Positions 9,831 through 36,374 are shown, numbered from the stretch's first letter. The stretch is 64,000 nucleotides of DNA from Bacilli bacterium (GCA_017511805.1 JAFWJA010000013.1:594-64593), one strand, 5' to 3'. The notes: generated from the letters alone by a model not told the origin. Translations and numbers: made by a program.

Positions 9831-9831
9831 C

Positions 9832-19900: not shown

Positions 19901-22900
19901 TCGCAGAGGTAACAGAAACTAGTGATATCGATCAAAATATAAAAACATATTCTGTTTCAGAATATTCATCTACTCCAGAATCAAATACACCAAAAGCTGG
20001 TGCTGGTTATGCAAAAATTACATATCTAGATGATTCTGGTAGTGTATATACTCAAAATCAACAATTTGATTATCCATATATGGGTTCTGAAGATACATTC
20101 ATACCTCTAGATTCAGGTAGATATTCTATAGAAGTATGGGGAGCTCAAGGTGGTACATATGATTCAACATATTATGGTGGCTATGGTGGCTACTCATATG
20201 GTGAAATAGAATTAAGTGCTGGTGAAACACTATATATTAATGTCGGTGGACAAGGTTCTTATACTGGTTCAATAGTCGACGGAGGATATAATGGTGGAGG
20301 ATCTGGTAGATATCGTGGAGGTTCTGGTGGTGGAGCTACATCAATAGCTACAGCATCTGGATTACTTTCAGAATTAGAAAATAATAAAGCTTCAATCTTA
20401 ATTGTCGCTGGAGGCGGCGGTGGAGGAGCTTATACAAATAGTGCAAATGGTAGTGCAGGAGGTTCTGGAGGAGGATTCGAAGGAGCAGACTCAATTATTA
20501 ATGCACGTGGAGATAACGTTCCTAACGGTTTCGGTAAAGGTGGAACTCAAGATCATGCTGGATGTGCAAGTAATAGTAAAAATTACTGTGGTGCATTTGG
20601 TCAAGGTGGTACATCTACAATGGATACTAGTTATTATGGATCCGGCGGTGGTGGCGGAGGCTACTACGGTGGTGGTACTGGTTACTATGATGGTGGAGCT
20701 GGAGGTTCTGGATATAATGGAAACTCTAGATTAACTAACAAAGTAATGTATGGTTACAGTGTTCCAATGACAAACGATGTTTGGATTAATAATTACTTAG
20801 TTGAAAGAGCGGGATTCATCGAAGTAAATGGAGAAACATTTAATAGCTTTGATGATGCATCAGAATATATCATAGATAACCTAAATGGCGTAGGAACAAT
20901 GAATATTGTTAAAGATGCTACTGTTCAAGAAGTAAGTACTATTTCAGGAACAACAATCACTTTAGACTTACAAGGACATGTATTAACAACAACTAAGACT
21001 ATTAACAATGAAGCAGACTTAACTGTTGAAGATGGTTCTACTCTAAAAACAGGAAAGATTGAAGATAATAAAGATAACGCATTTACTAATAAAGGATCTA
21101 TTACATTAGATGGTGTCTATGTTAAATCAACTGGATACAATGTAATCAATGGTTCTACCGGAACAGGTAGTATCGTTCTTAAGAATGGTAGTACACTTGA
21201 AGGTGCTAGAGGTATTTTATTAAATGCAGCTCAAAGTGTTACTATGAGTGATACAACAATTATTGCTACAACTGATGCTATTAGAAGTGATGCTGCTGCA
21301 ACAGTTACAATTAATTCTGGTACAATAACATCTTCAGATGTTGGTATTAGACTTCAAACAGATAATAATACATTAACTATTAATGATATAACTTTAACAG
21401 GAACTAATTATGGTGTTTATAACTATGGTCAATCTAGTGTAATAACTATTAATGACGGTACTATAACTGCTAATAATTATGATGGTGTTAGAGATGATAG
21501 ATCTAAGAGTACAACTACTTCAAATAATGAACATATATATTTCTCTAAGATTAATATTAATGGTGGAACAGTAACTGCTGGTAGATATGCAGTATATGAT
21601 ATTTATAGTTATGTTAATGTATCTAATGCAGAATTAAAATCTACTTCAACAAGTTATGCAGTATATAATTATGATTGGGGTATATTTAGCTTAAATGATG
21701 GAGCATTTATTAATTCTCCTAATGGTGATGGTGTATTCTTAAACTCATCAATTTATATACATGATGGAAGTAGAATTTATGCAGGACATACTTCAGCATA
21801 TGGTATTGGTGGATATTATATAAATGTTGTTATGGATGGTGGTTCTATTGAGACACCAGGATCTAATGCTTATGGTATTAGAGATACTCAATATGAATGT
21901 AATATTAATATCTCAGGTGGTTCAATTACTTCAGGTAATATTGGTGTTGGTTTAAATAATAGTGGAAACTATACAAGACAATTTACTATGACAGGTGGAT
22001 CAATTCAAGGTGATACTTATGGTGTATATCAAACACAAAACTACGCTACTACAATAGGATCTGAAGAAGCAGAATTATCAACAACTATTCCATATATAAC
22101 TGGTGGTTTATATGGATACTATAAAACAGCTGGAACATCTAATTTCTATAATGGTAGATTAAGAGGTTCTACATTTGGTTATAATGATGAATTTAATAAC
22201 ATTAGAACTAAAAAGACTATAGTAACTGAATATGAATCAGGAACTATTGATTCAACATTAACTTATTCAACTGATCAAGTATCTGAATATCCTATTTCAA
22301 ACTATGCTAAAGCAGAAAATGGTTATGTAAAATTAACATATCTTGGTGAAACTGTAGGAACATGTACTAATAACCAAGTATATGAATTTGATTATACAGG
22401 TGAAGAAGAAACATTTACGGTAGAGTGTCCAGGTGATTATAAGATAGAAACTTGGGGAGCTCAAGGTGGTTCTTATAGTGAAACATATAGAGGTGGTTAT
22501 GGAGCATATTCAACTGGTACTATTTCATTAGTATTAGATGAAGTATTATATATTAATGTTGGAGAACAAGGTTACCATTGTGAAGTAAACTCTGGAAGAT
22601 GTGAAGGTACATATAATGGTGGTGGAGTTGCTATCGCAGGTAACCAAGATTCAAGTACTGGTGGTGGTGCTACTTCAATTGCTTTATCATCAGGAACATT
22701 ATATGAATTAGGTCAAAATAGTTTACAATCTGACGTTATCATAGTTGCTGCCGGTGGTGGTGGTACTGGACAAACTGGTTATGGTGGTGAAGGTGGAGGT
22801 CTTCTTGGATCTTCAGGAACTGCTAGTAATCTTGATTATAACCATTTATATGGTGGTACCGGTGCTTCTCAAACAACTGGTGGTACTAGAGAATCTGGTG

Positions 22901-25900
22901 GACTATGTGGTTCATCTGGATTAAACTCAACTGGACAATTTGGATTAGGTGGAGCTTCAGCCGATTCTTCTTGTGGAGGATCTGGTGGTGGAGGTGGATA
23001 CTACGGTGGTGGTGGTTCACTTCGTCAACATAATGGTGCTGGTGGAGGATCAAGTTATATTGGTCATTCTAGATTAAGCGATGCTGTTATGTATGGATAT
23101 AAGGTTCAATCTTCCGCAGGAGTTTGGGTAAATAACTATCTAGGAGATATGGAAGGATTCTTACAAGTAGGTTCTGAAGTATTTAATAGTTTTGAAGATG
23201 CTAATGCATATATAGTTGAAAATCTATCTGGAACAGGAACTATTAATGTTATAAAAGATGCAACTATAACAGAATCAATAACATTCCCAGAAAGTACAAA
23301 TATAACAGTTGATCTAAAAGGTCATAAGTTAATTACATCAAATACAATAATTAATAATTCAAGTCTAGTTATTCAAGATACAGTAGGTAATGGTGTTATT
23401 CATAATAAGAAAGGTGACACAATACAAAATAACTTAAACTTAACAGTAGATGGTGCTAAGTTAAAGACATCTGCGGATGCGGTTATATGGGCAAAAACTG
23501 GAACTGGAGTTCTATTAATTAAAGGTAATTCAGTATTAGAAGGATCTAGAGCGATAGTTCTTGATTCTGCTCAAAAACTTACTGTATCTGATACTTATAT
23601 GCATACTACATCTGATGCTATAAGATCTAATGTAGCTAATGCCAATATTACTATTAATTCAGGTACTAATATTGATGCTGGTGATCTAGGTATTAGACTA
23701 CAAAATTCTGGTAATACTTTAGTAGTTAATGGTGGTACTATAAAAGGTACTAATTATGGTATATATAGTTATGGAGCTACTAATACTATTACAATTAATG
23801 ATGGTATTATAACAGGTACTAATAATGATGGTATTAGAGAAGATTATACTTCAAGTGGAGGTACACTTTCAGTATTAGGTGGAACTGTTACTGGTGGTAG
23901 ATATGGTATTTATTGTTATGGAGAATTATTGACAGTAGAAAATGCAGAAGTTAAAACTACATCAGCTAATAGAGATCACTATGCAATATATACTAGTTGG
24001 GGTACAACTCATATTAATGATGGAGCATTTATAAATGCACCTGATGCATCAGGTATCTGGGCAGAAGATGATTTATATATAGAAGCAGGCAGTAGAATAT
24101 TTGCTGGTAATAGATCAGCATATGGTATCGCAGAAAGATGGTCAAATACATTTGTTATCAATGGTGGTACTATAGAAACTCCTGGTTATAATGCAATGGG
24201 TATTTATTCATATGATAATCTAGTTAACTTAACTATGAACAGTGGTACAATAACTTCTGGTCATATAGGGTTATACTTAAATACATCTAGTAATTATACT
24301 AGAGTAGTAAATATTTATGGTGGTTCTATTTCAGGAGAAACTTATGGTATTTATCAACCACAAAACTATACAACAACAATAGGTGATAATGAAAGTGAAT
24401 TATCAACAACAGTTCCATATATAACTGGTGGATTATATGGTATATATAATACAGCAGGTACTGTTAATTTATATAGTGGTAGATTAAGAGGTCAAACTTA
24501 TGGATACTACAATGCAATTAATGATATAAGAGAAGAAAAAGTCATAAAAGAAGAAATAGAAGGTAATGAAGATATTGGTGTAACATCAACATATTCAGTT
24601 AATACATCATCAAGTACCGCAACTGCTAAAATTCCAAAAGCGGGCGCAGGATATGTAAGAATTACATACTTAGATGAAACTAATGCTACTTATACACAAA
24701 ATCAAACATTTGAATATAGTTACTTAGGTTCTGAAGAAACATTTACTCCTTTAGTAACTGGTAATTATTCATTAGAAGTATGGGGAGCTCAAGGTGGTTC
24801 AATTAATTCTAGTTATCTTGGTGGTTATGGTGGTTACTCATATGGTGAAATTGAATTAACTGCTAATGAAACACTTTATATTAATGTTGGAGGACAAGGT
24901 TCATATGGAAGTTCATCTATTCCAGGAGGATATAATGGTGGTGGTATTGGTACAGGTGGTTACTGTAACGGTACACGTTATGCTGCTTCTGGTGGAGGTG
25001 CTACTCATATAGCTACATCATCAGGAGTATTATCTTCACTTGAAAATGATAAATCATCAATCTTAATTGTTGCCGGTGGTGGTGGAGGTTCATCATCATA
25101 TGGAGCATATGGTTCTGGAGGATCCGGAGGAGGATTCAAAGGAGCAAATGGTCAATTCACATTAAGTGGACATAGTTATTCACAATATGCTACAGGTGGA
25201 ACTCAAACATCAGGTGGTATCTTTGGTAACAGTTATGCTTTACAAAAGAATGTAGTTTCAGGTTCATTTGGACAAGGTGGAAATCTTGATACAAGATCTT
25301 GTTCTGAAGGTTCTGGAGGTGGTGGAGGCTACTACGGTGGTGGATCCGCACTATTTGGTACAGGTGGTGGAGGTTCTGGTTATATTGGAAGCTCTAGATT
25401 AACTAACAAAGCAATGTATGGTTATAGCGTACCAATAACATATGGTTCATGGATAAATAATTATTTATCTGATCCAAAACAAACTATTCTTAATGTAGAA
25501 CAAGATGTTACATACTCAAATCTTCAAACTGCATTAGATGAAGTAGAAGATGGAGAAACATTACAATTATTAGATGATATATCTATAACATATGATTTAG
25601 AAACTCAAGAGAATATTAACTTTACATTAGATATGAATGGTTATAATTTAGATACAACAAAACAAATAACTAATAATTCTAATATGAAGATAATTAATAG
25701 TACTGTGGATAGTACAGAAGAGGAAGAAATAGTAGTAGAAACTAGTGAAAGTATTTATTACTATAATGGTACTAAGTATAATAACTTATATACTGAAAAT
25801 ACATATCAAGTAGATCAAGCTACATTTGAAACAAATTATATTGATTTACCAAATGATGGTTCAGGTTATTATATTGTGTATACTGATACTATTGATTTAA

Positions 25901-28900
25901 GTCAATATAATACAATAATAGTAAAAAAGACCAACTTTGTTGGCACAAGAGCTAAGTTTGCAGAAAATCCTAACTTAGTAGGAAATGTAGGAGATACTAT
26001 TTCTCCAACATGGCAAAATATATCTGGTGATATATATGCTGCAGATATTAGTTCATACAATGATGGTAATAAGAAATTCTATATAGATGCAGATTCTGGA
26101 GAAAATGCAGGATATGTTTACTATATAGCATTCTCATCAAAAACATTAAGTGAAGTAACAGAAGATTCAAGTTTTGTTGATAATCCAACAGTAACTTATT
26201 CAAAAGCATTTAATTATACTGGAAATGAACAAGTATTCACTGCTCCAGAAGATGGAGTATATAAATTAGAATCTTGGGGAGCTTCTGGTGGAGATGCTAT
26301 TTGGAGTGATAGTGTTAGATATCCAGGTGGATATGGTGGATATTCAACAGGAACTATAAGCTTACATAAAGGTGATAAATTATACATCAACGTTGGTGGA
26401 GCTGGAACAGATGATTGTAGAGAAGACTGTGATGGTGGATACAACGGTGGTGGTATTGCATCAGGAAGTGATGGGGCAGGTTATGGAGCAATATATGTCA
26501 TAACTGCTGGTTCAGGAGGAGGAGCTACTTCAATAGCTACTGAAACTGGATTACTTGAAGATCTAGAATCTAAAAAATCATCGATTGTCTTAGTATCTGG
26601 TGGAGGAGGCGGAAGCTTAATCCACAGATACGAAAATGCTGAAAACTGGTGGCAAGGTTATGGTGGTTCTGCTGGTGGATTTGAATCTACCGCAGGTGCT
26701 ATTCCAGTAGCTGGAAGAAGTATAAGTCCAACTGTAGCTACTCAAACTACACCAGGTACAGGTTATAGCCAAAGTAGTTATTATGGACAAGGATCATTTG
26801 GTAAAGGACAAGATGGTAACTTACATAAAGATGTTGCTAACTGTGCTGGTGCCGGTGGTGGTTACTATGGTGGTGGTGCATCTGGTTATACATCAACTTC
26901 AGGTGGTTCAAGTTATATTAATACATCAGTATTAAATAATGCTTATATGATGTGTTATAACTGTACTGAATCTAATACCACTGAAACAAAGACAATTTCA
27001 ACAACAAATACTGCTTCTACACCAACATCTGAATATGCAAATGAAGGTGATGGGTACGTATTAATTACATCAATTAATGCAAAAGAAAATAATGATCAAA
27101 CATTTAATTATACTGGTTCAGAAGAAGAATTCACTGTTCCAGTATCAGGTATCTATAAATTAGAAACTTGGGGAGCTCAAGGAGGAGCAGCTATTTGTAA
27201 TAATGGAGACTGTGAATCAACACCAGGTTATGGTGGATATGCAGTCGGTGAAATATATTTATCACAAGGTACTAAACTATATATTAATGTAGGTGGTAAA
27301 GGAGGAAAAGGAACTCTAAATGCTTGCTCTACTGGAGGTTATAATGGTGGAGGTACAGGAACTAACGATGGAGGTTCTTGTGGTTCAACAGAAGATAATG
27401 AAGCCTCTGGTGGAGGAGGAGGAGCTACATCAATAGCGACAACATCTGGTCTTCTATCTACATTAGAAAATAATAAAAATAGTATATTAATAGTCTCTGG
27501 AGGAGGAGGAGGAGCTTCATACAATTATGACTCTGGTTCTGGAGGCGGTGCCTTTGGTGGTATTACTTCTACAACCAACCAAACTGAAGTAAGTCAGACT
27601 ACTGGTTATGCATTTGGTCAAGGACAAAATGCAACAGGAGCTGGTGATTCAGATGGTGTTGGAGGAGGAGGAGGAGGCTACTACGGTGGCTACTCTAACA
27701 ACGTAAGCTTTAAATCAGCTGGATCAGGTGGTTCAGGTTATATAGGAAATTCAAGATTAAATACTAAACATATGGCTTGTTATGATTGTGATATATCAAG
27801 TGAAAGTAGTTCAAAAACTATCTCAGTAACAGATGTATCTGAAACACCAGTTGCTAACTATGCTAAGATTGGTGATGGTGCTGCAAAGATATCATTTGTA
27901 AGAACTACATCTACAGTTGAATTTGATTATACTGGTGATGTTCAACAGTTTGTTGCTCCAGAAACAGCTAAGTATAAAATAGAAGCTTGGGGAGCTCAAG
28001 GTGGATCGACAGATTTAAATTCTGGTGGTAAAGGAGCATATACATCAGGTATCATTGATTTAAATAAAGATGATGTCATATATGTTTACGTTGGTGCAAC
28101 GCCAGGTGATGATTCTAGATCAGTTGCCGCATATAATGGTGGTGGTTTATCGTCAGGAGAACCTGAATATAGTTCAGGTGGTGGTGGTGCTACTGACATT
28201 AGATTAGTATCAGGAACTTGGAATGATCAATCTTCATTAGCTTCAAGAATAATGGTTGCAGGAGCTGGTGGAGGAGCATATACATATGAATTAAGTAACT
28301 TTAAATTTGATGGTGGTGCAGCCGGTGGATTAGAAGGAGCAACTGGAGAATACTCAAATACTTGTGCTTCAACAGGTGGTACTCAAACTAGCGGTGGAAC
28401 ATGTTCATCGAATAATTCTACTGCAGGTTCATTTGGACAAGGTGGTAATTCTGTAGGAGGAAGAGCTTCTGGTGGAGGTTCAGGATACTATGGAGGAGCT
28501 GCTAGATATGATGCACCTGGCTCTGGTAGTGGAGCAGGAGGTGGATCATCATATATCTCTGGATATAGAGGATCTATAGCTATAACTTCAGGATCAGATT
28601 TAACTCCAAAAACTGGATGTACAAGTGGTACAAACGATATCGAATGTTCATACCACTATTCAGGAAAAATATTTACTAATTCTAAAATGATAGATGGTGC
28701 TTCAACTATGCCAACACACGATGGAACTAGTACAATGGTTGGTAATAGTGGAGATGGATATGCAAAGATTACTAAAGTAGAAGCAAGTCCAATAACAGAA
28801 TTTGATTATACTGGTGATGTTCAAGAATATACAGTTCCAGCAACTGGTACATATAAGATTGAAGCTTGGGGAGCTCAAGGAGCAAGCCAAACTGACACAA

Positions 28901-31900
28901 ATGGTGGAGCTTATACATCTGGAACAATTACATTAACAAAAGATACTAAATTATACATATATGTTGGTGAAAAGGGTAATTACACTAGAACTGCTACATT
29001 TAATGGTGGTGGTGTTGGTGGATTAAGTAATGAGTCAAATCCTGATGATCTTGGAAACTCTGGAGGAGGAGCAACAGATATACGTCTAGTAAAAGGTACA
29101 ACTTGGGATGATTCAAGTTCTCTAGCAAGTAGAATTATGGTTGCTGGTGGCTCTGGAGGAGGAGCTGATAGTTTATATGAAACTGCTGGTGAATATTCAA
29201 TCGCAGGTGGATTAACTGGTGGCTCTGGCGGATATTATTCTGGTCATTCATATGTAGGTCAAAATGGACAAGGTGGAACTCAAACAGCTGGTGGAGCAGC
29301 AGGAGTAAATCATTATTCAGCATCAGGTACAAATACATCAGGAAGCTTTGGTCAAGGTGGTTCATCACAAAGTACATCTGCTTATAAAGGTTCCGGCGGT
29401 GGTGGCGGAGGCTACTACGGTGGAGGAGCTGGAGGAAGTACTATGTCTGGCGGAGCTGGTCAAGGTGGTGGCGGTGGTTCATCATATATCTCAGGATATA
29501 AAGGATCAGTTGCTATAACATCTGAACAAGATCTAACTCCAAAATCAGGATGTTCTGATGGAACAACTAATGTTGAATGTTCATATCATTATTCAGGTAA
29601 TGTATTTAAGAATGCAATAATGAAAGATGGTGCTTCAACTATGCCAACACATGATGGAACTAGTACAATGGTTGGTAATAGTGGAGATGGATATGTAAAG
29701 ATTACATTTATTGAAAATGATCCTGTTACCGAATATGGCTATACAGGAACTGCTCAAGAATTCACTGCTAAAAAGACTGGTAAATATAAAATAGAAGCTT
29801 GGGGAGCTCAAGGATCAAGTAGACCTGATAATAGATCTGGTGGTCCAGGAGCATATACATCTGGTATTCTAGATTTAAATCAAGGTGATACTTTATATGT
29901 TTATGTCGGTGGAACAGGAGCTTCTGAAAAAAATAATGGTGCAGGTAATACAATACCATATGGTGAGTATGCATTTAATGGTGCTTCAGGTGGTAATTAC
30001 ACTTGTTATTCATATAACAATACAACTGCTTACAACAATTATGGTGGAGGAGCAACGGATATTAGATTAGTTTCAGGAAACTGGGATGATAGTACATCAC
30101 TTGCTTCAAGAATTATGGTTGCTGCTGGAGGAGCTGCTGCTAATGAAAATGCAGATGGAGTTCCAGGAGGAGCATTAACAGGATACGATGGAATACATGG
30201 TACAGGTGGTACTCAAACATCTGCAGGTGGACCAAGAAGTGGTTCATTTGGTAAAGCTGGTATTCCAGTATATGGTGGATATAGATGTAATGGTAGTATT
30301 GCTTCTGGTGCAGGTTCTGGATATTATGGTGGAGGAGCTTATGATCAAGATAGAGATAACAATGGAATGGGATCAGCTGGATCAGGTTCATCATATATTT
30401 CAGGATATAAAGGATCAGTTGCTATAACATCAGCATCTGATACATCTCCAAAAACTGGATGTACAAATGGAACAACGGATGTTACATGTTCATATCACTA
30501 TTCAGGAAAAGTATTTACAAATACATCAATGAGAGATGGTGCTTCATCAATGCCAACGCATGATGGTGAAGGTACTATGACCGGTAATGAAGGTGATGGA
30601 TTTGTTAAGATTACATATATTGAAGAAAAAGAAGAAGTAAGACCAGTAGACTTTGATTATACAGGAAGTGAACAAGTATTCACTGCTCCAAAAACTGGTA
30701 CTTATAAATTAGAAACTTGGGGTGCCCAAGGTGGTGGACCAGGTACAATTAATAATAAAGTAGCACTTGGTGGTTACGGAGGTTATTCAACAGGTGAAAT
30801 AACTTTAAATGCTGGTGATACATTATATATCAATGTTGGAGGAAAAGGTACTTATGGTAGAAGTGATCCTCAAACAGGTGGATATAATGGTGGAGGTAAT
30901 GTCTCTAATCGTCATGGTGATTCTAATGAAGTAAGAGCATCAGGAGGCGGAGCTACATCAATAGCAACTTCAACTGGTACATTATATGAATTAGGTCAAA
31001 ATAGTAAACAAGGTGATGTAGTTATAGTTGCCGGTGGCGGTGGTGGTTCACATTTAAATAGTGTATCTTCGTCATACTCTTATGGAGGCTCTGGTGGAGG
31101 ATTCATCGGAGGAGGATCTTCAGGAGTAGGAGATGGAACATATAACTTAAATAATGGTGGAACACAACTTGAAGTAGGTAGCTCAAGTACAAGCTGGGGT
31201 GTATCTGATTATGGTGACTTTGGAAAAGGTGCTTCTGCTTCACAAAATGGTGCAGGTGCCGGAGGTGGATACTACGGTGGTGGTGTCGGAGTAAGAGGTT
31301 CTGGTGGAGGATCTGGATATATTGATACTAGCGTTTTAGCTAATGCTAAAATGGTTATGTATCAAACAGATCAAGGTTATAAATCAACTGAACCAGAAAC
31401 ATATACAGATATTACTAGTGATGTTAATGAAGAAGCAGTATCTGATAATGCTAAATCAGGTGATGGTTTTGCAAGAATAACATACGTACCTGATAATGGA
31501 GAAAACATAACAGAAGAAGTAATTAGTGTTACAACTGTTACAAACTTCACATATGATTCTGTATTGAATAATCAATATGATGAAATGGTAGTTAGTAATG
31601 GTAAGTTAATATCAACTGTAGCTAATTCAGGAAATGCTTCAGTAACTTATTACAATAATCCAATAAGAGTTACAACTACTAAAGTAAATAATATGACTAT
31701 TATGGGTTCAATAGATTACTATAATAATAAAGATGATAATTCTTTAGGAACTCTATATGTTGGATTATCAAAGACTAATTCAAATAACATAGACTTTGAT
31801 TACTATGATGAATATGAAATTGACTCAACAACCGCAAAAACAATAGACTTTGAATTTACACCAGATGAAGTTGGAGATTATTATTTCAAGATAATTCTAG

Positions 31901-33594
31901 TTCATAATGATTCATATGCATATAGCAATATATTTGCTGAATTAAATAATTTAAAGATTAGAACTATAAAGAAAAAATCTGAAAGAGAATATAGTCCAAG
32001 TTCTATAAATAATGGTGTAAGTACAACATTATTTATAAATAATAGTACATTAGATATAGAAAATGTTAACTTTGATGTATATAACCTAGTTGAAGGAACA
32101 AGTAATTCAGTATTAACAATTGATGGTTCAACTATTAAAGGAGATAATAAAGCAATTAATAGTTCAGGTGATATAACTGTAACTAATTCAAGTATTGTTT
32201 CTCCATATGGTATAGATTCTAAGAAAGACTTGGTATTAAGTAATTCATCAATTAGATCTACAAATCAAGGTATAATTAATTCTGGAACAATGACTATTAC
32301 TAATTCATCAGTTTCAGGAACATCATATGGTATATATGTTAATTCTTCTGGAAATAGTACAGTTACAAATTCAGTTATTAAATCTACATCAGTATCTGTT
32401 TATAAACAAGGTTCTGGATCAATAGATTTAACAAATGATACTATGACTGGTAGTGTTCAAAATAGTGGAGCATCAAGTACATTAACTGTTACTGGTGGAA
32501 GTATAACTGGTCAAATATCTAACTCAGGTACATCAACATATTCTAAAGTACCAATTACTTATACAAGCAATTATTACAATGCAGAAAACTTAATTAATAA
32601 CTCAGGTATATTAAACATGAATGAATCAGAAGTTACATTTAATAGTACTTATGCATCAGGTTCAAGTTATAGAACTAGTGCTCTATATAATACAGGAACT
32701 GTTGATTCATATAAGACTAAATATAATGTATTCCATACAAATGGTTATTATAAATGGATGATAGGTATTAATAATAGTGGTTTATTAACATCTAATAGAG
32801 ACTCAATTGAGATAACAGGAGCAGGTGCTTCATATGCAATCTTAAATGATACAAGCAATGATTGTACTATAACTAATATCAATATTAATTCTCATGATAA
32901 TGGTAGTGAAATATATGGTATTAGAAACTTAAGAGGTAAGATTAATCTTAATGGTGGTTCTGTTTCAATGAACAATAATACATTTACTCATGGTCTATAT
33001 ACTAGTGGTACAAGTAATACTATTGTTACAGATACAGTATTTACATTAACTAATAACTCTAATAACAGTAAAGCAATTTACATGCAAGATGATGGAGGTA
33101 CTGTTACAGTAGTAAGAGGTACATTTAGTGCAAGTGCTACTGGTGAAGCAGATGCTATATATATGGATAATGGTACATTAAATATTCAAGATGGTATATT
33201 TAACGCTAACTCTACTAGTGGAACAGCATATGGATTAAAGATGTCTAATGGTACTGCTACTATAGAAAAAGGAACTGTTAGTGCACATGGTACAAATGCT
33301 TATGGTATTTATATGACTAGAGGTACTTATACTCAAGGTATTCCAGATAATTCAGGATATGAAACAGCTGATGTATCAATTACTGATCCTCATATTGAGG
33401 CTATTGGTACAACAGAAGGTACTGGAATAAGTATGGGTTCAGGTTCATTCAATTTCTATGATGGTATTATTATAGGTTCAACTAGATCAAGAGTTGCGGG
33501 TGACATAGTAACTAATACAGATACAAACTTTCAAGTTAAGACAGATATAGATGAGAACAACTATAGTTACTCTATACTAGAATTTATAAAGTAG
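10417..33594 (+). CDS. Giant exported modular protein (7,725 aa): SipW-type signal-anchor and TasA-like module, Flg_new repeats, about 11 beta-helix-like modules, nine glycine-rich (ALK/LTK-GRD-like) domains, no C-terminal wall anchor
   Basis: Single uninterrupted ORF of 23,178 nt with an RBS aaaggtg upstream. Strong internal repeat structure. Ten F/Y-Y-D/N-G-x-[ILV]-x-G module caps at approx. 13108, 14353, 15448, 16861, 17359, 18097, 19825, 22144, 24468 and 33454. Nine W-G-A-[QS]-G motifs. Confidence 0.9.
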   Translation: MNKLVNLIRNNKTKFILFAMAILIASITLVTALLSSNLNINGTAYIEESSWVIYFTDVRKSTDSVASDNDARIVNYEKTKIEFSADLHRGGDFYEFTVYTVNDGSIDAMVDSIEKSALTEEQLKYLEFNVTYDDGRQIQRCDPLDAGTRRRVKAIVKYKDGIDMSDYPDEDVHLDLFFNINYVQKDNACTPQDFGDEHVLTIVPNGGIYQGRTDEIRVYLEEGDTYTFTEPTREFYNFTGWEGDPAEGTYTLEDKVFTMGKENVTMTASWEEGDYVARIMNVYYPSIQLAFDAAGNTWEDNTVYLLKDTTEDPTNNTDESFVFNLGGHTVTGTLTNSVDGNLTIVNGRFENEDENEITVRNYGILTMGVDDDDVQVESSIAICGETIGLQNEAGSEFYFYDGYLQAVHALVGGYTDKADGYYVIVDYRKSINKDRVYLVKNNNRAVAKTTTNGDLYYYNLQSAIEEVEGNKKDNPSLTDSDYIITAIRSFEAAYEIDVHNNSRIFFDTDGYNIDFGENITNDGYFNIYNGQDSISTLKMAKTIANNGSLIINNLLFEETTNSNIINNTGTLAITNSTLHSKYGNAVNNSANGTVSLDNNTSLKSDDGYGLNNSGSNLTIGAGTIYGFSNSGTATITGGNYITFVDKTQNEYNTRYTNGIYNTGTINMNGGSVQNNISTNPIVNRGTFNYYDGDLDSSTTLIENYYGTVNILDNEISTTGTAINNGTVNINGGDLISDTTTITGSTNVTVTSGEVKSNEGTAISISGSVNVNGGTVTGKTQAISTNNFTISSGTVTSEGAGVSASSSNVSGGTITSSGVGLSTTNLSMTGGTITSTDNTGVYVSNDGTITGGNINGDLYGLYTNNKITLGSNDENISTDSPVITGNSYGLYMNGNDNNFYDGFIKGQVDSYEGEFTGLPLGGFVAREEQTISDTNYVVSYVSFYENWLRVGENEYNTIDAASDAITGESGTIEVIKDAEINFEQTFKANSTKVITFDLNGHNITTTQNITNSSLVNLTITDSGNVAFNAKTGFINNGNVTFEGGTYTSTNPYIVTNNNVVTIDGATFTTNRDVINNGSRTLIINSGTLNGSTVVSNSYGSVTMNGGTINATNYGIINGSFEMNGGTINSNDYGTAYTTVHIIDGTIHTTNTAIFSYGTSTNIEGGTITSDNSTAVDGRRYVSISGGTITGTIGVYHTTYSDGYYIYQDNMSITGGTITGTTGEGIITYCGTLTYSDATTTGNTNGLVVSYDTNNYGATAVILFGTIKGNTNGILNNDTLVLGTNDETISKTIPLIMGGDYGVYNNDNRNATFRFFDGILKGLEDGHYGLVTEIPDASMVVDDYEFIDRVEYQTEYIGEQADWIRVGTRTFNSINKAADYIGESGTMYLMHDVSISFDQELPTGKDITFDLQGHSLMMTNSLKVSGTGTIIDSVGNGGITNIKQNVFNVTGNLIVNSGTYTATNTNTISNSGTTTINGGTIRSTKDGALGIYTTGTTNVTGGSIDAPRGIENNGGTLNVSGGTVSGTNGIAITTNATTSISGSAYVVSSTTDGVYVSNGETTISGGTIKSLGGTAIHQNDYYNSTLNVTGGEIEGNYNGITSGTGTTNISGGHIVGITNVGINAGGTNYITGGTIEGATYGVYSNGTTTLGNNDGTISIDEPSIKGELYGLYIYSGTVNFYDGILKGITDAYKNEITNIPDRTEIFNDVERIDNYDYKTAYLLTESVIAINTTTNEEYTNLQDALDEAKTGETVKLLANVPLYYEVINNNDDPIILDMNGFRITTNKRIINNKNLTIKNDGENDSFIRTSSGINLITNTETLNVYNVEIINNSSSVYVINNTGTLSLTESKVTGINDISSSNSVTLDHSIISSSNIAINTSGSLNVTGGSISGSYYSVYANNNKTNTLSECTITGTYYNQGGNSTTFNYVTMNSSIQNYSSTITANGSVFNYSILNAGTFTLQNNSTLNGVISQNSGTLSAINSTINSSSDRVIYNSGTMNINNTNVNVDRDYGDSRIFNNNGTLNITNGSTISGGASTTGASYMGIYSYGSGNATIEDSNIILNSRSNVYGVYVDSTNSHVTIKTGNIEVTGSTSYGAYLSAGTFTMGEVEVGEHSGTEDADVSQTNPKVQSIGRAQGIGVKHNNANFEFYDGIVWGSKYSKPDITTLVELNYEVTTYVDMDNGYEYSVLEFMKHDYQDSVAILNNVYYRDVQSAIDKCESPNDEILLLRSTSENTLNIPEGASVKINLNGYSITTKVTNNGTFNIYNGSLQSFDEVTVTNNGTLIIGKNDGTISSTNVRIISESTAIQNNGTVKMYDGYIQGVPSINGTIDEIPNLSRIYTEVTDQMERKYLQSLSEEAIISGETKLIITIDPNGGSYNGSKEVQDVYENYHVPYTLSTPIKNGCTFIGWEISDPSVLSGTGTEQDPYVITLELSDITLKAKWSINDDVVAQIGNEYYTTVMSAIEDAKDNDTITILKDVTEDVTNNKNVTIDLNNNTITGAFINNGILRLINGVIENANGTGLVNNKTLTMGERDGVVVTDSVKIMGTTLGLEQNGSFNFYDGYIEGDVAMLGRTNSVPNGYFLYNERNVIKNCQRVYLIGNPANAVAVIEEGGTQYFFSLQDAINTATVSGSEIFIVRDFEATYTITVDEGADILINMNSYNITTGNDITNNGTLKIYDNSENKGSITSARTITNNGTLTIEDISITESNTDNIAINSVANSSLNIKNANITAQNGYAVKSLGNLKLEGDYNLDSNDYALYAGGTTEDITTGNIAGMELYSDLNIGGTVNVISKTAAIAIRQPVNLTIDGGYYKTINSNSGIYNEGGSSTITMNSGTIEAYYGFSCSSGTTTYTLNGGTITASDQGARMYSDNCNLTVNDGSITGTNYGVYTYGQSNKININGGTITATSYDGIRDDRSKNTTSSDGEYPYFSKINVLGGTVTGARYGIYEIYSRTTIGNAEVKTTSTSNSYYAIYNGDWSNLYINDGAFVNAPYACGIYCSGGVDILGGRVVTGHNNGYGIYSNFMGLNMSGGSIEATGNSSYGIYSNSNYFKMNMTGGSITSKNIGVALVNSGNYTREFTMTGGSIQGDTYGVYQTQNFTTTIGNAEDELSTTIPYITGGLYGYYKTAGTAYFYNGRLRGLTYGYNDIFNNIRTKMDIAEVTETSDIDQNIKTYSVSEYSSTPESNTPKAGAGYAKITYLDDSGSVYTQNQQFDYPYMGSEDTFIPLDSGRYSIEVWGAQGGTYDSTYYGGYGGYSYGEIELSAGETLYINVGGQGSYTGSIVDGGYNGGGSGRYRGGSGGGATSIATASGLLSELENNKASILIVAGGGGGGAYTNSANGSAGGSGGGFEGADSIINARGDNVPNGFGKGGTQDHAGCASNSKNYCGAFGQGGTSTMDTSYYGSGGGGGGYYGGGTGYYDGGAGGSGYNGNSRLTNKVMYGYSVPMTNDVWINNYLVERAGFIEVNGETFNSFDDASEYIIDNLNGVGTMNIVKDATVQEVSTISGTTITLDLQGHVLTTTKTINNEADLTVEDGSTLKTGKIEDNKDNAFTNKGSITLDGVYVKSTGYNVINGSTGTGSIVLKNGSTLEGARGILLNAAQSVTMSDTTIIATTDAIRSDAAATVTINSGTITSSDVGIRLQTDNNTLTINDITLTGTNYGVYNYGQSSVITINDGTITANNYDGVRDDRSKSTTTSNNEHIYFSKININGGTVTAGRYAVYDIYSYVNVSNAELKSTSTSYAVYNYDWGIFSLNDGAFINSPNGDGVFLNSSIYIHDGSRIYAGHTSAYGIGGYYINVVMDGGSIETPGSNAYGIRDTQYECNINISGGSITSGNIGVGLNNSGNYTRQFTMTGGSIQGDTYGVYQTQNYATTIGSEEAELSTTIPYITGGLYGYYKTAGTSNFYNGRLRGSTFGYNDEFNNIRTKKTIVTEYESGTIDSTLTYSTDQVSEYPISNYAKAENGYVKLTYLGETVGTCTNNQVYEFDYTGEEETFTVECPGDYKIETWGAQGGSYSETYRGGYGAYSTGTISLVLDEVLYINVGEQGYHCEVNSGRCEGTYNGGGVAIAGNQDSSTGGGATSIALSSGTLYELGQNSLQSDVIIVAAGGGGTGQTGYGGEGGGLLGSSGTASNLDYNHLYGGTGASQTTGGTRESGGLCGSSGLNSTGQFGLGGASADSSCGGSGGGGGYYGGGGSLRQHNGAGGGSSYIGHSRLSDAVMYGYKVQSSAGVWVNNYLGDMEGFLQVGSEVFNSFEDANAYIVENLSGTGTINVIKDATITESITFPESTNITVDLKGHKLITSNTIINNSSLVIQDTVGNGVIHNKKGDTIQNNLNLTVDGAKLKTSADAVIWAKTGTGVLLIKGNSVLEGSRAIVLDSAQKLTVSDTYMHTTSDAIRSNVANANITINSGTNIDAGDLGIRLQNSGNTLVVNGGTIKGTNYGIYSYGATNTITINDGIITGTNNDGIREDYTSSGGTLSVLGGTVTGGRYGIYCYGELLTVENAEVKTTSANRDHYAIYTSWGTTHINDGAFINAPDASGIWAEDDLYIEAGSRIFAGNRSAYGIAERWSNTFVINGGTIETPGYNAMGIYSYDNLVNLTMNSGTITSGHIGLYLNTSSNYTRVVNIYGGSISGETYGIYQPQNYTTTIGDNESELSTTVPYITGGLYGIYNTAGTVNLYSGRLRGQTYGYYNAINDIREEKVIKEEIEGNEDIGVTSTYSVNTSSSTATAKIPKAGAGYVRITYLDETNATYTQNQTFEYSYLGSEETFTPLVTGNYSLEVWGAQGGSINSSYLGGYGGYSYGEIELTANETLYINVGGQGSYGSSSIPGGYNGGGIGTGGYCNGTRYAASGGGATHIATSSGVLSSLENDKSSILIVAGGGGGSSSYGAYGSGGSGGGFKGANGQFTLSGHSYSQYATGGTQTSGGIFGNSYALQKNVVSGSFGQGGNLDTRSCSEGSGGGGGYYGGGSALFGTGGGGSGYIGSSRLTNKAMYGYSVPITYGSWINNYLSDPKQTILNVEQDVTYSNLQTALDEVEDGETLQLLDDISITYDLETQENINFTLDMNGYNLDTTKQITNNSNMKIINSTVDSTEEEEIVVETSESIYYYNGTKYNNLYTENTYQVDQATFETNYIDLPNDGSGYYIVYTDTIDLSQYNTIIVKKTNFVGTRAKFAENPNLVGNVGDTISPTWQNISGDIYAADISSYNDGNKKFYIDADSGENAGYVYYIAFSSKTLSEVTEDSSFVDNPTVTYSKAFNYTGNEQVFTAPEDGVYKLESWGASGGDAIWSDSVRYPGGYGGYSTGTISLHKGDKLYINVGGAGTDDCREDCDGGYNGGGIASGSDGAGYGAIYVITAGSGGGATSIATETGLLEDLESKKSSIVLVSGGGGGSLIHRYENAENWWQGYGGSAGGFESTAGAIPVAGRSISPTVATQTTPGTGYSQSSYYGQGSFGKGQDGNLHKDVANCAGAGGGYYGGGASGYTSTSGGSSYINTSVLNNAYMMCYNCTESNTTETKTISTTNTASTPTSEYANEGDGYVLITSINAKENNDQTFNYTGSEEEFTVPVSGIYKLETWGAQGGAAICNNGDCESTPGYGGYAVGEIYLSQGTKLYINVGGKGGKGTLNACSTGGYNGGGTGTNDGGSCGSTEDNEASGGGGGATSIATTSGLLSTLENNKNSILIVSGGGGGASYNYDSGSGGGAFGGITSTTNQTEVSQTTGYAFGQGQNATGAGDSDGVGGGGGGYYGGYSNNVSFKSAGSGGSGYIGNSRLNTKHMACYDCDISSESSSKTISVTDVSETPVANYAKIGDGAAKISFVRTTSTVEFDYTGDVQQFVAPETAKYKIEAWGAQGGSTDLNSGGKGAYTSGIIDLNKDDVIYVYVGATPGDDSRSVAAYNGGGLSSGEPEYSSGGGGATDIRLVSGTWNDQSSLASRIMVAGAGGGAYTYELSNFKFDGGAAGGLEGATGEYSNTCASTGGTQTSGGTCSSNNSTAGSFGQGGNSVGGRASGGGSGYYGGAARYDAPGSGSGAGGGSSYISGYRGSIAITSGSDLTPKTGCTSGTNDIECSYHYSGKIFTNSKMIDGASTMPTHDGTSTMVGNSGDGYAKITKVEASPITEFDYTGDVQEYTVPATGTYKIEAWGAQGASQTDTNGGAYTSGTITLTKDTKLYIYVGEKGNYTRTATFNGGGVGGLSNESNPDDLGNSGGGATDIRLVKGTTWDDSSSLASRIMVAGGSGGGADSLYETAGEYSIAGGLTGGSGGYYSGHSYVGQNGQGGTQTAGGAAGVNHYSASGTNTSGSFGQGGSSQSTSAYKGSGGGGGGYYGGGAGGSTMSGGAGQGGGGGSSYISGYKGSVAITSEQDLTPKSGCSDGTTNVECSYHYSGNVFKNAIMKDGASTMPTHDGTSTMVGNSGDGYVKITFIENDPVTEYGYTGTAQEFTAKKTGKYKIEAWGAQGSSRPDNRSGGPGAYTSGILDLNQGDTLYVYVGGTGASEKNNGAGNTIPYGEYAFNGASGGNYTCYSYNNTTAYNNYGGGATDIRLVSGNWDDSTSLASRIMVAAGGAAANENADGVPGGALTGYDGIHGTGGTQTSAGGPRSGSFGKAGIPVYGGYRCNGSIASGAGSGYYGGGAYDQDRDNNGMGSAGSGSSYISGYKGSVAITSASDTSPKTGCTNGTTDVTCSYHYSGKVFTNTSMRDGASSMPTHDGEGTMTGNEGDGFVKITYIEEKEEVRPVDFDYTGSEQVFTAPKTGTYKLETWGAQGGGPGTINNKVALGGYGGYSTGEITLNAGDTLYINVGGKGTYGRSDPQTGGYNGGGNVSNRHGDSNEVRASGGGATSIATSTGTLYELGQNSKQGDVVIVAGGGGGSHLNSVSSSYSYGGSGGGFIGGGSSGVGDGTYNLNNGGTQLEVGSSSTSWGVSDYGDFGKGASASQNGAGAGGGYYGGGVGVRGSGGGSGYIDTSVLANAKMVMYQTDQGYKSTEPETYTDITSDVNEEAVSDNAKSGDGFARITYVPDNGENITEEVISVTTVTNFTYDSVLNNQYDEMVVSNGKLISTVANSGNASVTYYNNPIRVTTTKVNNMTIMGSIDYYNNKDDNSLGTLYVGLSKTNSNNIDFDYYDEYEIDSTTAKTIDFEFTPDEVGDYYFKIILVHNDSYAYSNIFAELNNLKIRTIKKKSEREYSPSSINNGVSTTLFINNSTLDIENVNFDVYNLVEGTSNSVLTIDGSTIKGDNKAINSSGDITVTNSSIVSPYGIDSKKDLVLSNSSIRSTNQGIINSGTMTITNSSVSGTSYGIYVNSSGNSTVTNSVIKSTSVSVYKQGSGSIDLTNDTMTGSVQNSGASSTLTVTGGSITGQISNSGTSTYSKVPITYTSNYYNAENLINNSGILNMNESEVTFNSTYASGSSYRTSALYNTGTVDSYKTKYNVFHTNGYYKWMIGINNSGLLTSNRDSIEITGAGASYAILNDTSNDCTITNININSHDNGSEIYGIRNLRGKINLNGGSVSMNNNTFTHGLYTSGTSNTIVTDTVFTLTNNSNNSKAIYMQDDGGTVTVVRGTFSASATGEADAIYMDNGTLNIQDGIFNANSTSGTAYGLKMSNGTATIEKGTVSAHGTNAYGIYMTRGTYTQGIPDNSGYETADVSITDPHIEAIGTTEGTGISMGSGSFNFYDGIIIGSTRSRVAGDIVTNTDTNFQVKTDIDENNYSYSILEFIK
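20055..20810 (+). repeat. Glycine-rich domain copy 1 (WGAQGG type)
   Basis: YSIEVWGAQGG (tgg at 20137)...LYINVGGQG...GGGATSIA...ILIVAGGGGGGA...GSGGGGGGYYGGGTGYYDGGAGGSGY. Confidence 0.8.
22375..23150 (+). repeat. Glycine-rich domain copy 2
   Basis: YKIETWGAQGG (tgg at 22453)...LYINVGEQG...GGGATSIA...IIVAAGGGGTG...GGSGGGGGYYGGGG. Confidence 0.8.
24700..25470 (+). repeat. Glycine-rich domain copy 3
   Basis: YSLEVWGAQGG (tgg at 24781)...LYINVGGQG...GGGATHIA...ILIVAGGGGGS...GSGGGGGYYGGGS. Confidence 0.8.
26200..31490 (+). repeat. Back-to-back array of six glycine-rich domains (copies 4-9)
   Basis: W-G-A-[QS]-G codons start at 26275, 27169, 27988, 28867, 29800 and 30718, a spacing of 819-933 nt. 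Each unit begins F[DN]YTG..[QE].F..P..G.YK[IL]E.WGA and ends G[DE]G[YFA].[KRL]I[TS]. Confidence 0.85.
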
Positions 33595-33602
33595 GTGATA
33601 AT

Positions 33603-34397
33603 ATGAAGAAGATGAAAGAAATTTACAAAAAATTTATTGCTTATGCTAGTAAAAAAGAAAACTTTGGAAAGGTATTACTAGGAATATTACTTTTAATATT
33701 CCTAGTACTTACCATTATTTATTTTATCGGTACTGGTAGAATAAGTAAGATAGAAGAAGAAAAGATTACTAGAGAAAGTGCAAAATATTTAAGTTATATA
33801 GAGGATATAACAGAGTCTGATAGTGATGAAATAGATAAGTACATTATATTTGCTTTAGATTATTCTTTATATAATGAGAATAATTCAAGTATGACTTCTG
33901 AAGAAATATCAAAATTTATAAAAACTAATTTAAATATAGATGTTGATAAAGAAAAGATTATTAATTTAGGTATTACAGAAGAAATGCTTGCAAAGAATAT
34001 TACTTATGATGCCGGTAAAGATATATATACCATTAATCAAAAAGAAGTAACTGGTAAACAAATAAGTGAGACTAAAATTATTTATTATAAGTTAAATAAT
34101 ATTAAAAAAACTACAAAGTCTTCTTATAAAGCATTTTATGATAAATATGTTATTACTAATCCATATGATATGTTAAATTATTATATTGATAAGAATGCTG
34201 AAGAAGATAATAAAGAAAAAATAGTAGATATTACAGCAATAAGAAATTATTTACTTGGTTCTAGTAGTGTTTCAAATGTTAAAGAGATAATAAAGAATAA
34301 TGAAGATGATTTAAGTAAATATGCTGAAACAGATGGTAGTGTTACTATATCTTATAGTCTAGTTGGTGATGAACTAGTTATAGATGGAATTAATTAG
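33603..34397 (+). CDS. Single-pass membrane-anchored protein, unknown family; paralog of the next gene
   Basis: 264 aa with one N-terminal TM (VLLGILLLIFLVLTIIYFIG). It shares IIFALDYSL..., ...LGITEEMLAK... and ...YDKYVITNPYDMLNYY with the 34406 product. The gene starts 8 nt after the giant ORF stop. Confidence 0.7.
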   Translation: MKKMKEIYKKFIAYASKKENFGKVLLGILLLIFLVLTIIYFIGTGRISKIEEEKITRESAKYLSYIEDITESDSDEIDKYIIFALDYSLYNENNSSMTSEEISKFIKTNLNIDVDKEKIINLGITEEMLAKNITYDAGKDIYTINQKEVTGKQISETKIIYYKLNNIKKTTKSSYKAFYDKYVITNPYDMLNYYIDKNAEEDNKEKIVDITAIRNYLLGSSSVSNVKEIIKNNEDDLSKYAETDGSVTISYSLVGDELVIDGIN

Positions 34398-36347: not shown

Positions 36348-36374
36348 AAAAACATATTTAATATGTTTTTTTTT
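36346..36374 (+). terminator. Rho-independent terminator after the 187-aa module gene
   Basis: Stem aacatat/atatgtt extended by A/T pairs, then a T-run of at least 8. Confidence 0.7.

Follow-up and report, generated by a model that had tools for sequence, protein, structure and literature searches.

Nine glycine-rich domains of the ALK/LTK type in one giant bacterial protein

The natural polyglycine or PPII-bundle domains that have been surveyed are few, namely antifreeze proteins, Obg, gp38 and ALK/LTK (bioRxiv 10.1101/2023.11.25.568672). In phages, the TNF-like and Gly-rich domain of Pam3 gp24 resembles C. elegans ALK, and the protein recognises its host through variable distal tips; its TNF-like domains are found in a trimer in which the TNF-like/Gly-rich contacts are described as loose, the driving force for trimer formation being an alpha-helical bundle (PMC9608196). 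In Pam3 gp24 (7YFW), where a TNF-like sandwich and a Gly-rich lattice occur together, and in T-even/S16 gp38 (6F45), the conserved Gly-rich motifs act as scaffold and the variable segments carry recognition. For bacterial proteins of the Pfam family PF12810 no functional data were found in the literature that we searched. Here we describe a bacterial protein that contains nine glycine-rich domains (GRDs), all sharing this Pfam family with the GRD of ALK and LTK (7LIR, 7LRZ, 7N00, 7NWZ, 7NX1).

The window analyzed is a stretch of 64,000 nucleotides and all positions given below are counted from its first letter; every feature lies on the + strand. The nine GRDs are carried by a single ORF (10417-33594) coding for 7,725 aa, with an RBS-like AAAGGTG 9 nt upstream of its ATG. 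The product has a signal-anchor plus beta-sandwich N-terminus, 11 beta-helix-like modules that each terminate in a [FY][FY][DNS]G motif, the nine GRDs and two domains of ~170 aa without assignment. When the whole protein was scanned with Pfam, the GRD-bearing part (aa 3162-6994) matched PF12810 only and the N- and C-terminal parts gave nothing significant. Beta-helix module 9 (20842-22251), located between GRD units 1 and 2, gave a weak match to Pfam NosD when scanned alone (23.8 bits versus a cut-off of 23.6, E 3.4e-5). NosD is a right-handed parallel beta-helix family, and this one shaft module passes its cut-off. An origin of the repeats as an assembly artefact was rejected, given that the nine units, which fall into two subtypes, are 36-64% identical in pairwise protein comparisons, that at the DNA level the last 10 kb of the gene contain a single internal repeat, of 354 nt and 80% identity, and that the 7,725-aa gene call is repeated in at least four independent metagenome assemblies. 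Comparison of these last 10 kb across eight loci showed 100% identity in seven of them.

The preliminary description of this region had located nine W-G-A-[QS]-G codons at 20137, 22453, 24781, 26275, 27169, 27988, 28867, 29800 and 30718, and these positions are exact (aa 3241, 4013, 4789, 5287, 5585, 5858, 6151, 6462 and 6768 of the ORF, all in frame). The motifs [YF]NG[GA][GS], GGGAT and GYYGG also occur nine times each and in identical order, the first reading YNGGG in seven units, FNGGG in unit 7 and FNGAS in unit 8. The common motif order that had been proposed for all the units holds through the poly-Gly motifs, but the closing G[DE]G[YF].[KR]IT is C-terminal in units 4-9 only. The layout of a six-fold tandem array plus three interspersed copies is seen in the ORF, with the three interspersed GRDs spaced 772 and 776 aa and followed by six head-to-tail copies joined by linkers of 6-10 residues. 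The proposed membership in PF12810 was borne out by nine significant Pfam matches (1,035.9 bits summed over nine stretches of the protein) to the family, now named ALK_LTK_GRD. Single units scored between 112.9 and 171.4 bits (E 3.2e-32 to 4.2e-50) against a gathering threshold of 24.5 bits, and five shuffled plus five reversed units had no Pfam match at E<=10. The matches cover positions 6-243 of the 243 of the profile in units 4-9 and only 3-204 in units 1-3.

The six tandem copies are canonical, that is, formed by a core followed by a C-terminal tail, for which we built an HMM from 167 canonical homologues. The array runs from unit 4 (26179-27075; PF12810 E 2.4e-37 over profile positions 6-242, tail HMM E 1.6e-16) and unit 5 (27076-27900; E 3.7e-34, tail HMM E 7.1e-17) through three units of subtype B, unit 6 (27901-28779; E 4.2e-50), unit 7 (28780-29712; E 2.4e-46, 62% identical to unit 6) and unit 8 (29713-30621; E 1.5e-40, 61% identical to unit 6), to the last copy, unit 9 of subtype A (30622-31488; E 1e-34, tail HMM E 1.9e-11). 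Units 6-8 resemble their sister units less than they resemble GRDs from other proteins, with which they reach 56% identity. Glycine makes up 20-26% of the units, invariant non-Gly positions include Y, E, W, A, L, V, N, T, I, F and S, and the conserved Gly motifs alternate with variable segments of 6-14 residues.

The three interspersed copies differ in the order of their parts. Unit 1 (19933-20778; PF12810 E 3.2e-32) matches only positions 3-203 of the 243 in the profile, and its tail (aa 3173-3204) was found by the tail HMM upstream of the core (aa 3217-3454) with an E value of 2.4e-12. The same was seen in unit 2 (22252-23121; E 2.8e-33, profile positions 7-204), with a tail at aa 3946-3976 (E 1.7e-9) and then the core, and in unit 3 (24583-25446; E 3.9e-35, positions 4-203), with a tail at aa 4723-4752 (E 6.4e-9). 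Apart from these three upstream locations the tail HMM matched exclusively at GRD C-termini. In units 1-3 the homologous closing strand (GAGYAKIT, ENGYVKLT and GAGYVRIT) precedes WGAQGG by ~45 aa, which moves the start of the array from the stated 20055 to near nt 19933. In the AF2 model of unit 1, derived from a shallow alignment, the N-terminal tail strands are docked on the core (pLDDT 92-96) and the C-terminal continuation has a pLDDT <50. Since the strands missing from the profile match were found upstream and modelled as docked, units 1-3 resemble circular permutants placed between beta-helix modules. The same leading permuted pattern is seen in related giant proteins.

AF2 gave confident models for unit 6 (pLDDT 94.8, pTM 0.93, with 252 of 296 residues at pLDDT >=90) and for unit 1 (pLDDT 89.2, pTM 0.88). 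Both contain ~15 strands together with long segments that are neither helix nor strand and have a pLDDT >90, so that the Gly runs are modelled as ordered and not as disordered loops. This confident non-regular structure is indirect evidence for a putative lattice of hexagonally packed polyglycine-II (PGII) helices (phi/psi near -75/145, spacing of ~4.8-5 A). In Foldseek searches of the PDB the top matches were ALK/LTK ectodomains only (the first 21 for unit 6, and likewise the top ones for unit 1), with a probability of 1.00 and TM-scores of just 0.3-0.44 at an rmsd of 10-15 A, so that any equivalence in detail, the putative PGII lattice included, is tentative. Pam3 gp24 (7YFW) came at rank 22 for unit 6 as a weak match (E 0.18, TM 0.25), and many predicted phage proteins in BFVD, among them structural and tail proteins, matched the same model at E 1e-21 with TM up to 0.73. 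Profiles built on the units retrieved SCD-2 (7LIR, 2.1e-13), ALK (4e-10) and LTK (5e-8) from the PDB, and these three were the only domain-length, multi-entry matches; a lone unit sequence without profile had no match there. Each GRD is predicted to consist of a TNF-like beta-sandwich intertwined with an ordered glycine-rich subdomain.

The giant gene belongs to an operon-like gene string in which it is flanked by two SipW-type signal peptidase genes. Behind a promoter-like site (8640-8668), the first gene (8685-9830) codes for a SipW/archaeal-type signal peptidase I with a ~260-aa membrane N-terminal extension (NCBIfam TIGR02228 92 bits versus a cut-off of 51.85, and Pfam Peptidase_S26), and it is followed, directly 5' of the giant gene, by a DUF5305-like small membrane protein (9817-10395; Pfam DUF5305 E 2.4e-11). 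This SipW-DUF5305-giant order is preserved in the closest related genomes. Downstream, two small paralogues of the N-terminal domain of the giant (187 and 226 aa; 35784-37097) were identified by alignment, and the cluster is closed by a second SipW-type signal peptidase-like gene (37106-38272) that matches TIGR02228 below the cut-off (33 bits, E 4.9e-8) with the same architecture as the first. The N-terminus itself (10417-10986), a signal-anchor followed by a ~150-aa beta-sandwich domain, was delimited by alignment to these small proteins (34-37% identity to ORFs 35784-36347 and 36417-37097); it had no significant match in Pfam or PDB and belongs to a family with many members in Bacilli MAGs from gut and rumen. 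SipW-type peptidases in Bacillus process matrix fibre proteins, and a SipW-like peptidase adjoining putative substrate genes is a feature that this locus has in common with SipW/TasA-type fibre systems. Searches with the N-terminal domain and the two paralogues found no Pfam, NCBIfam or PDB sequence match, TasA/camelysin (Peptidase_M73) included.

Putting these data together, we think it somewhat more probable than otherwise that the giant is a surface fibre displaying nine diverged GRDs as binding knobs. The identity and number of its GRDs, their ordered fold, the permutation signal and the gene context are shown by the data above, and its export, assembly into fibres, adhesion and targets are what we infer. 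It would be secreted by an uncultured gut Bacilli bacterium of low GC, and the two flanking SipW-type peptidases probably process its signal-anchor and beta-sandwich domain at the N-terminus. The two small paralogues are candidate co-assembled subunits, which may attach to the giant or assemble with it. This fibre-assembly part of the explanation is weak, because no similarity of the N-terminal domain to TasA or a solved fibre subunit was detected. The 11 beta-helix-like modules would form the shaft that makes up the fibre body, bearing three permuted single GRDs between modules and the six tandem copies with short linkers near the C-terminus. Each GRD is most likely a binding knob in which the Gly motifs provide a rigid scaffold and the variable segments of 6-14 residues would form the contact surface, as in Pam3 gp24, T-even gp38 and ALK/LTK, and nine diverged copies of two subtypes might provide avidity or several specificities. 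The binding-module reading derives from the alternation of Gly motifs and variable segments, from the frequent prepilin fusions of single-GRD homologues and the occurrence of the fold in phage virion and tail proteins, and from the precedent of Pam3 gp24. Two observations speak against it: the variability between motifs could reflect relaxed constraint instead of ligand contact, and tandem copies with linkers of 6-10 residues would also suit a purely structural stalk.

The preliminary description had suggested either a rigid spacer or a multivalent binding surface, and we favour the latter. That the GRDs are mainly architecture, a rigid and protease-resistant stalk or spacer without any ligand of its own, making the fibre longer and holding the C-terminal beta-helix module and the ~170-aa domains at a distance from the cell, appears to us unlikely, if still worth serious attention. 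Six consecutive copies with such short linkers are what a spacer would look like, and short-linker tandem copies occur in the stalks of other giant adhesins. Furthermore, GRD copy number differs among related giants (4-9), which fits length tuning, and PPII bundles have been described as highly stable and as tolerating what flanks them in sequence (bioRxiv 10.1101/2023.11.25.568672). On the other hand, strong divergence and two subtypes are unnecessary for a spacer, three of the copies are mounted singly between shaft modules, in most bacterial homologues the GRD is present once and at a terminus, often on a pilin, where a spacer would not be expected, and every characterised relative is involved in recognition, ALK/LTK binding a cytokine and Pam3 gp24 a host receptor (PMC9608196).

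Self-association of the GRDs, with flat polyglycine faces or the edges of beta-sandwiches binding each other and holding fibres or cells together in a matrix or biofilm as SipW-exported TasA-type systems do, seems improbable to us. The SipW-type peptidases of the gene string and the trimeric state of the TNF-like domains in Pam3 gp24 (PMC9608196) would agree with it, but homology to TasA/camelysin was not detected in Pfam, NCBIfam or PDB, and in Pam3 the domain contacts are loose and the trimer is driven by the helical bundle (PMC9608196). Finally, we give practically no credence to the repeats being low-complexity, disordered Gly-rich linkers with a merely compositional Pfam match. The glycine content would allow such a view and older Pfam text for the PF12810 family warned of biased composition, but it is effectively refuted by the negative result for shuffled and reversed units, the many invariant non-Gly positions, the AF2 confidence along unit 6 and the specificity of the Foldseek matches to ALK/LTK.

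An exhaustive search found 17,794 PF12810-type cluster representatives (at 50% identity); every one of the best 150 of them had two or more GRD copies and some giants had 9-12. These numbers, together with the many phage proteins that share the fold, do not agree with the preliminary view of a rare fold. Actually, the domain and the multi-copy giants are common in gut bacteria and phages, which places the protein described here in a family that is known but unstudied and makes it no rarity; a giant with nine GRDs is not unique, and its PF12810 domains are already reported by standard Pfam annotation. As this protein and its relatives show, uncultured gut bacteria and their phages carry the ALK-type GRD in abundance on their surfaces, often in multiple copies, and the domain appears to tolerate circular permutation. 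Should the units be binding modules, they would represent a large, unexplored adhesin repertoire of the gut microbiome and, for protein design, a natural library of PGII scaffolds with grafted loops, and would bear on the origin of the ligand-binding domain of ALK/LTK. A more speculative proposal, to which we assign a minor chance, is that the GRD is primarily an adhesin module of prokaryotes and phages with a later co-option in metazoans, in which case the giant would be a poly-adhesin whose nine diverged knobs have different targets, be they hosts, glycans or microbes, with loops displayed on a putative polyglycine-II scaffold and with permutation allowing three of the knobs to be side-mounted on the beta-helix shaft.

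Compared with the known systems, ALK/LTK GRDs are the sole significant structural match in the PDB, with an identical motif order (strand-GAxGG, LYIxVGxxG, GGGAT and GGGxGYxGG) and a similar closing strand (nGyAkIt in the bacterial profile, EGYIKIA in SCD-2). However, sequence identity is only 16-26%, with the low TM-scores mentioned above, and the GRD is present nine times and not singly, with three copies apparently circularly permuted and all mounted on a beta-helix fibre of a bacterial host. The EGF-like module, the transmembrane helix after the GRD and the kinase are lacking, consistent with the Pfam scan of the giant, in which kinase and EGF domains were absent, and with the context of a bacterial chromosome, and no ALKAL-type ligand is known. 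The phage tips carry the domain singly and terminally, on a phage fibre that is trimeric, whereas here a cellular protein has nine copies. The closest relatives in sequence (40-56% identity to units 6-8) are single-GRD "glycine rich domain-containing proteins" of gut Firmicutes/Bacilli, similar organisms. They share the canonical core-then-tail topology of units 6-8, but are 300-550 aa long and have their one GRD attached to a pilin or signal peptide, many of them as fusions with a prepilin N-terminus (PF07963 + PF12810), and differ from the giant in the N-terminal domain and in the SipW-type peptidase neighbours of the latter. More similar in layout are the giants from metagenomes, proteins of 4,000-7,800 aa with 4-12 PF12810 domains such as P0121 (7,093 aa, 9 copies), P0128 (7,663 aa, 10-11) and P0195 (7,775 aa, 12). 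Four of them, P0132, P0142, P0160 and P0183, have the same architecture, with the N-terminal domain, the FYDG-type modules and the leading permuted units in common, and among these listed relatives the protein described here has the highest copy number, nine GRDs versus 4-6.

The forward-strand ORF at 10417-33594, uninterrupted in the window, codes for a giant protein of 7,725 amino acids in which the motif W-G-A-[QS]-G appears nine times, at residues 3241, 4013, 4789, 5287, 5585, 5858, 6151, 6462 and 6768. The corresponding codons (20137, 22453, 24781, 26275, 27169, 27988, 28867, 29800 and 30718) are identical to those listed in the preliminary description, and its arrangement of three interspersed and six tandem copies of a glycine-rich domain (GRD) was recovered as well, the first three units being 772 and 776 residues apart and the other six following head-to-tail. 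The ordered motifs that it described as common to all the units are indeed so for [YF]NG[GA][GS] (YNGGG in seven units, FNGGG in unit 7 and FNGAS in unit 8), GGGAT and GYYGG, found nine times each and in constant order, but the terminal G[DE]GY.KIT is missing from the ends of units 1-3. Nine significant matches to the Pfam family PF12810 (ALK_LTK_GRD) had also been expected, and the search with the GRD-bearing part of the giant returned this single family, in nine stretches totalling 1,035.9 bits. Scanned singly, the units scored 113-171 bits against a cut-off of 24.5 bits (E-values from 3.2e-32 to 4.2e-50). Actually, the precomputed annotation of the collection already assigned the giant to PF12810.

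No Pfam match was obtained, even at E<=10, with five shuffled units or with five reversed ones, so that composition does not drive the similarity and a compositional artefact could be ruled out. The alignment of the nine units has 39 invariant columns, many of them non-glycine. A single-sequence phmmer search of PDB with unit 6 found nothing, and profiles were needed. The profile of the nine units retrieved SCD-2 (7LIR) at 7.8e-10, human ALK at about 2e-8 and LTK at 6e-4, and its domain-length matches with several PDB entries were exclusively chains of the ALK family. With a profile of 108 sequences the values were 2.1e-13, 4e-10 and 5e-8, respectively, and the closing strand was also aligned, below threshold (nGyAkIt in the bacterial sequences versus EGYIKIA in SCD-2). 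We consider the nine units almost certain members of the PF12810 family.

Glycine makes up 20-26% of the GRD units. Along this part of the gene (20000-32000) the G+C content goes from about 0.26 up to 0.34-0.40, a rise explained by the glycine codons, nearly all GGT or GGA, glycine being 22% of the region, and therefore no sign of a foreign origin. The units share 36-64% identity at the protein level, and the only internal repeat at the DNA level in the last 10 kb of the gene is one of 354 nt at 80% identity. The locus is present on at least 24 metagenome contigs. At least four independent assemblies have the giant called at 7,725 amino acids and one has it at 7,617, and comparison of eight loci showed the last 10 kb to be 100% identical in seven of them. 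The divergence of the units and the identity of this region across assemblies rule out a copy number inflated by assembly. The shorter giant belongs to a strain variant (locus L166, ERZ28653885 scaffold_1240), in which the 108 missing residues fall outside the identical last 10 kb and the neighboring DUF5305-like gene codes for 198 amino acids instead of 183.

The AlphaFold2 model of unit 6, built on the 108-sequence alignment, reached a mean pLDDT of 94.8 and a pTM of 0.93. It contains about 15 beta-strands alternating with long stretches outside any helix or strand, with pLDDT above 90; these stretches are modelled as ordered glycine-rich structure, the opposite of the disordered loops that would have spoken against the preliminary description. 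In the Foldseek comparison that it had proposed, the top 21 PDB matches were all ALK/LTK ectodomains (E 8.5e-9 to 3.7e-6, probability 1.00), with TM-scores of only 0.37-0.44 and an rmsd around 10 A. Rank 22 was the fibre of cyanophage Pam3, at E 0.18, and lower ranks were noise. The units may contain a hexagonal PGII lattice. Against the viral predicted-structure library BFVD the same model matched 83 proteins at E<=1e-3, with TM-scores up to 0.73. Among their sources are gut phages, cyanophages, Caulobacter phages and giant viruses, and several of the proteins are annotated as virion structural or tail-collar proteins. Many GRD proteins of phages and giant viruses bear the automatic UniProt name 'receptor protein-tyrosine kinase' (for example, A0A8S5SE10, A0A1D7SXD8 and A0A385EC16), which appears to have spread from the Pfam family rather than to reflect a genuine annotation as kinases.

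Units 1-3 cover only positions 3-204 of the 243 in the PF12810 profile and lack the terminal strand, yet each has a hairpin homologous to it about 45 residues upstream of WGAQGG. The C-terminal tails of single-GRD homologues of the canonical type (167 sequences) were used to build an HMM, which gave nine matches in the giant, one at the C-terminus of each of units 4-9 and one ahead of each of units 1-3 (residues 3173-3204, E 2.4e-12; 3946-3976, 1.7e-9; and 4723-4752, 6.4e-9, respectively). It matched no GRD-less module end of the giant, so the hairpin is not the ordinary end of a beta-helix module. Among homologues the tail was C-terminal in 91 of 112 and upstream only in one, and the leading units of related giants also have the tail before the core. 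The model of unit 1 with its hairpin (residues 3168-3475) had a pLDDT of 89.2 and a pTM of 0.88, with 92-96 for the upstream strands (model residues 9-13 and 31-37), and Foldseek again retrieved ALK/LTK only. Its last 21 residues, with pLDDT below 50, resemble the start of every beta-helix module. The simplest reading of sequence and model is that units 1-3 are probably circular permutants, with the tail preceding the core. Insertion of a beta-helix module between a core and its own tail was rejected, since it would orphan the tail before unit 1 and leave unit 3 tailless, and AlphaFold2 docks the upstream tail on the core that follows. The permutants could have originated from a tail-core piece cut out of a tandem array.

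The rest of the giant includes 11 beta-helix-like modules, each closed by a conserved [FY][FY][DNS]G-[ILV]-x-G motif at residues 399, 898, 1313, 1678, 2149, 2315, 2561, 3137, 3910, 4685 and 7680. Module 9, between units 1 and 2, narrowly passed the Pfam threshold for NosD, a right-handed beta-helix family, and its sequence gave no match in PDB. As it is the only one of the 11 to reach a Pfam threshold, the module type is essentially undescribed. At least one Listeria-Bacteroides (Flg_new) repeat is found at residues 231-271. On either side of the six-copy array there is a domain of about 170 amino acids (25669-26178, residues 5085-5254, and 31489-32016, residues 7025-7200, both on the forward strand); neither had a significant Pfam match, and their composition suggests jelly-roll or CBM-like beta domains. 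The N-terminal domain (10417-10986, forward strand, 190 amino acids) consists of a signal-anchor and a beta-sandwich, and no match was found in Pfam or PDB, nor any tie to TasA or another solved or curated family. It belongs to a large paralogous family of gut and rumen Bacilli MAGs (loci L173-L251), with up to eight or more loci per genome and proteins from 190 to more than 3,500 amino acids.

The giant lies in a tightly spaced gene string with a promoter-like site at 8640-8668 and an RBS ahead of its own ATG. The string starts on the forward strand with a SipW-type peptidase (8685-9830; TIGR02228, 92 bits) and a small DUF5305 membrane protein (9817-10395). The giant is followed by two paralogous single-pass membrane proteins of about 260 amino acids with no family assignment (33603-34397 and 34406-35170), a second small DUF5305-like membrane protein (35204-35755), two small forward-strand paralogues of the giant's N-terminal domain (35784-36347 and 36417-37097) and, closing the string on the same strand, a second SipW-like gene (37106-38272). 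The TIGR02228 cut-off is exceeded by the first of these peptidases and missed by the second. Both ends of the cluster are occupied by SipW/archaeal-type signal peptidase I genes, whose products are extended at the N-terminus by about 260 amino acids of multi-pass membrane sequence, unusual for SipW, and both the DUF5305-like and the single-pass accessory genes are duplicated. The closest related genomes keep the order SipW-DUF5305-giant, and an orthologous giant (locus L173) is accompanied by the same accessory genes. The flanking genes are ordinary chromosomal ones (Mur ligase, MiaB, YlbF, MscL, ABC transporters), MiaB having at most 73% identity to uncultured Bacilli and Erysipelotrichaceae MAGs. 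Upstream there are two more large secreted-looking proteins with Flg_new repeats (302-2584 and 4033-7152), and one of the two also has a Y_phosphatase3 domain.

Unit 6 and unit 1, used as queries in word-indexed searches, gave more than 2,000 significant proteins each, nearly all of 300-550 amino acids with a single PF12810 and many with a prepilin N-terminal domain (PF07963); the few named ones are a 'glycine rich domain-containing protein' or 'glycine-rich protein' of Bacilli or Oscillospiraceae MAGs. When 1.84 billion representatives (clusters at 50% identity) were searched exhaustively with an HMM, 17,794 proteins passed E<=1e-3, and 3,240 of them E<=1e-30. The observation in the preliminary description is confirmed and its interpretation partly supported: it was right on the family, but the fold is not rare in prokaryotes. 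The best 150 of the 17,794 are all multi-copy (on recount, 40 with two copies, 42 with three, 32 with four, 17 with five and 19 with six to ten), and the maximum reported was 12 stretches in a protein of 7,775 amino acids. Several of these 150 (P0132, P0142, P0160, P0179, P0183 and P0184) are giants of the same architecture, with the same N-terminal domain and FYDG-type modules, and have 4-6 GRDs. In the genome scan, GRD loci came mostly from uncultured gut and rumen Bacilli ('Tenericutes'-labelled MAGs), Erysipelotrichaceae and Clostridia, with others in Segatella, other Bacteroidales, Saccharibacteria and Erysipelothrix.

Nine ordered GRDs of the ALK type are found here on a secreted-looking giant beta-helix protein beside SipW-type peptidases. 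The giant would be exported and form or decorate a surface fibre, each GRD acting as a binding knob. In the 108-sequence alignment the conserved glycine motifs are interspersed with eight variable segments (6-14 residues each), as in phage gp38 and Pam3 gp24, which follow a scaffold-and-loop logic with the host recognised by variable tips (PMC9608196; bioRxiv 10.1101/2023.11.25.568672). This arrangement favors binding over a pure spacer, as does the fact that all characterised relatives use the domain for recognition, of a cytokine in ALK/LTK and of a host receptor in Pam3 gp24. In most bacterial homologues the GRD is single and terminal, often borne by a pilin, and the nine units are strongly diverged into two subtypes, with units 6-8 more similar to GRDs from other proteins than to their sisters in the giant, all of which points in the same direction. 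The main alternative is a structural stalk, favored by the linkers of only 6-10 residues in the tandem array and by the different copy number among relatives. Both roles are compatible, and we give adhesion or binding an even chance of being the primary one.

Nine copies in one protein is a high number, not a unique one. The bacterial branch of PF12810 is large and named in databases; our literature search found no study of its members, and the surveys of PPII-bundle domains contain just a few natural examples (bioRxiv 10.1101/2023.11.25.568672). What is new is the permuted GRD copies inserted in the shaft and the SipW-flanked context. The giant belongs to the PF12810 domain family and not to the ALK/LTK receptor family, since it lacks the EGF module, transmembrane helix and kinase of those receptors. 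Its GRDs would work like the glycine-rich receptor-binding tips of phages, to which they may also be related.
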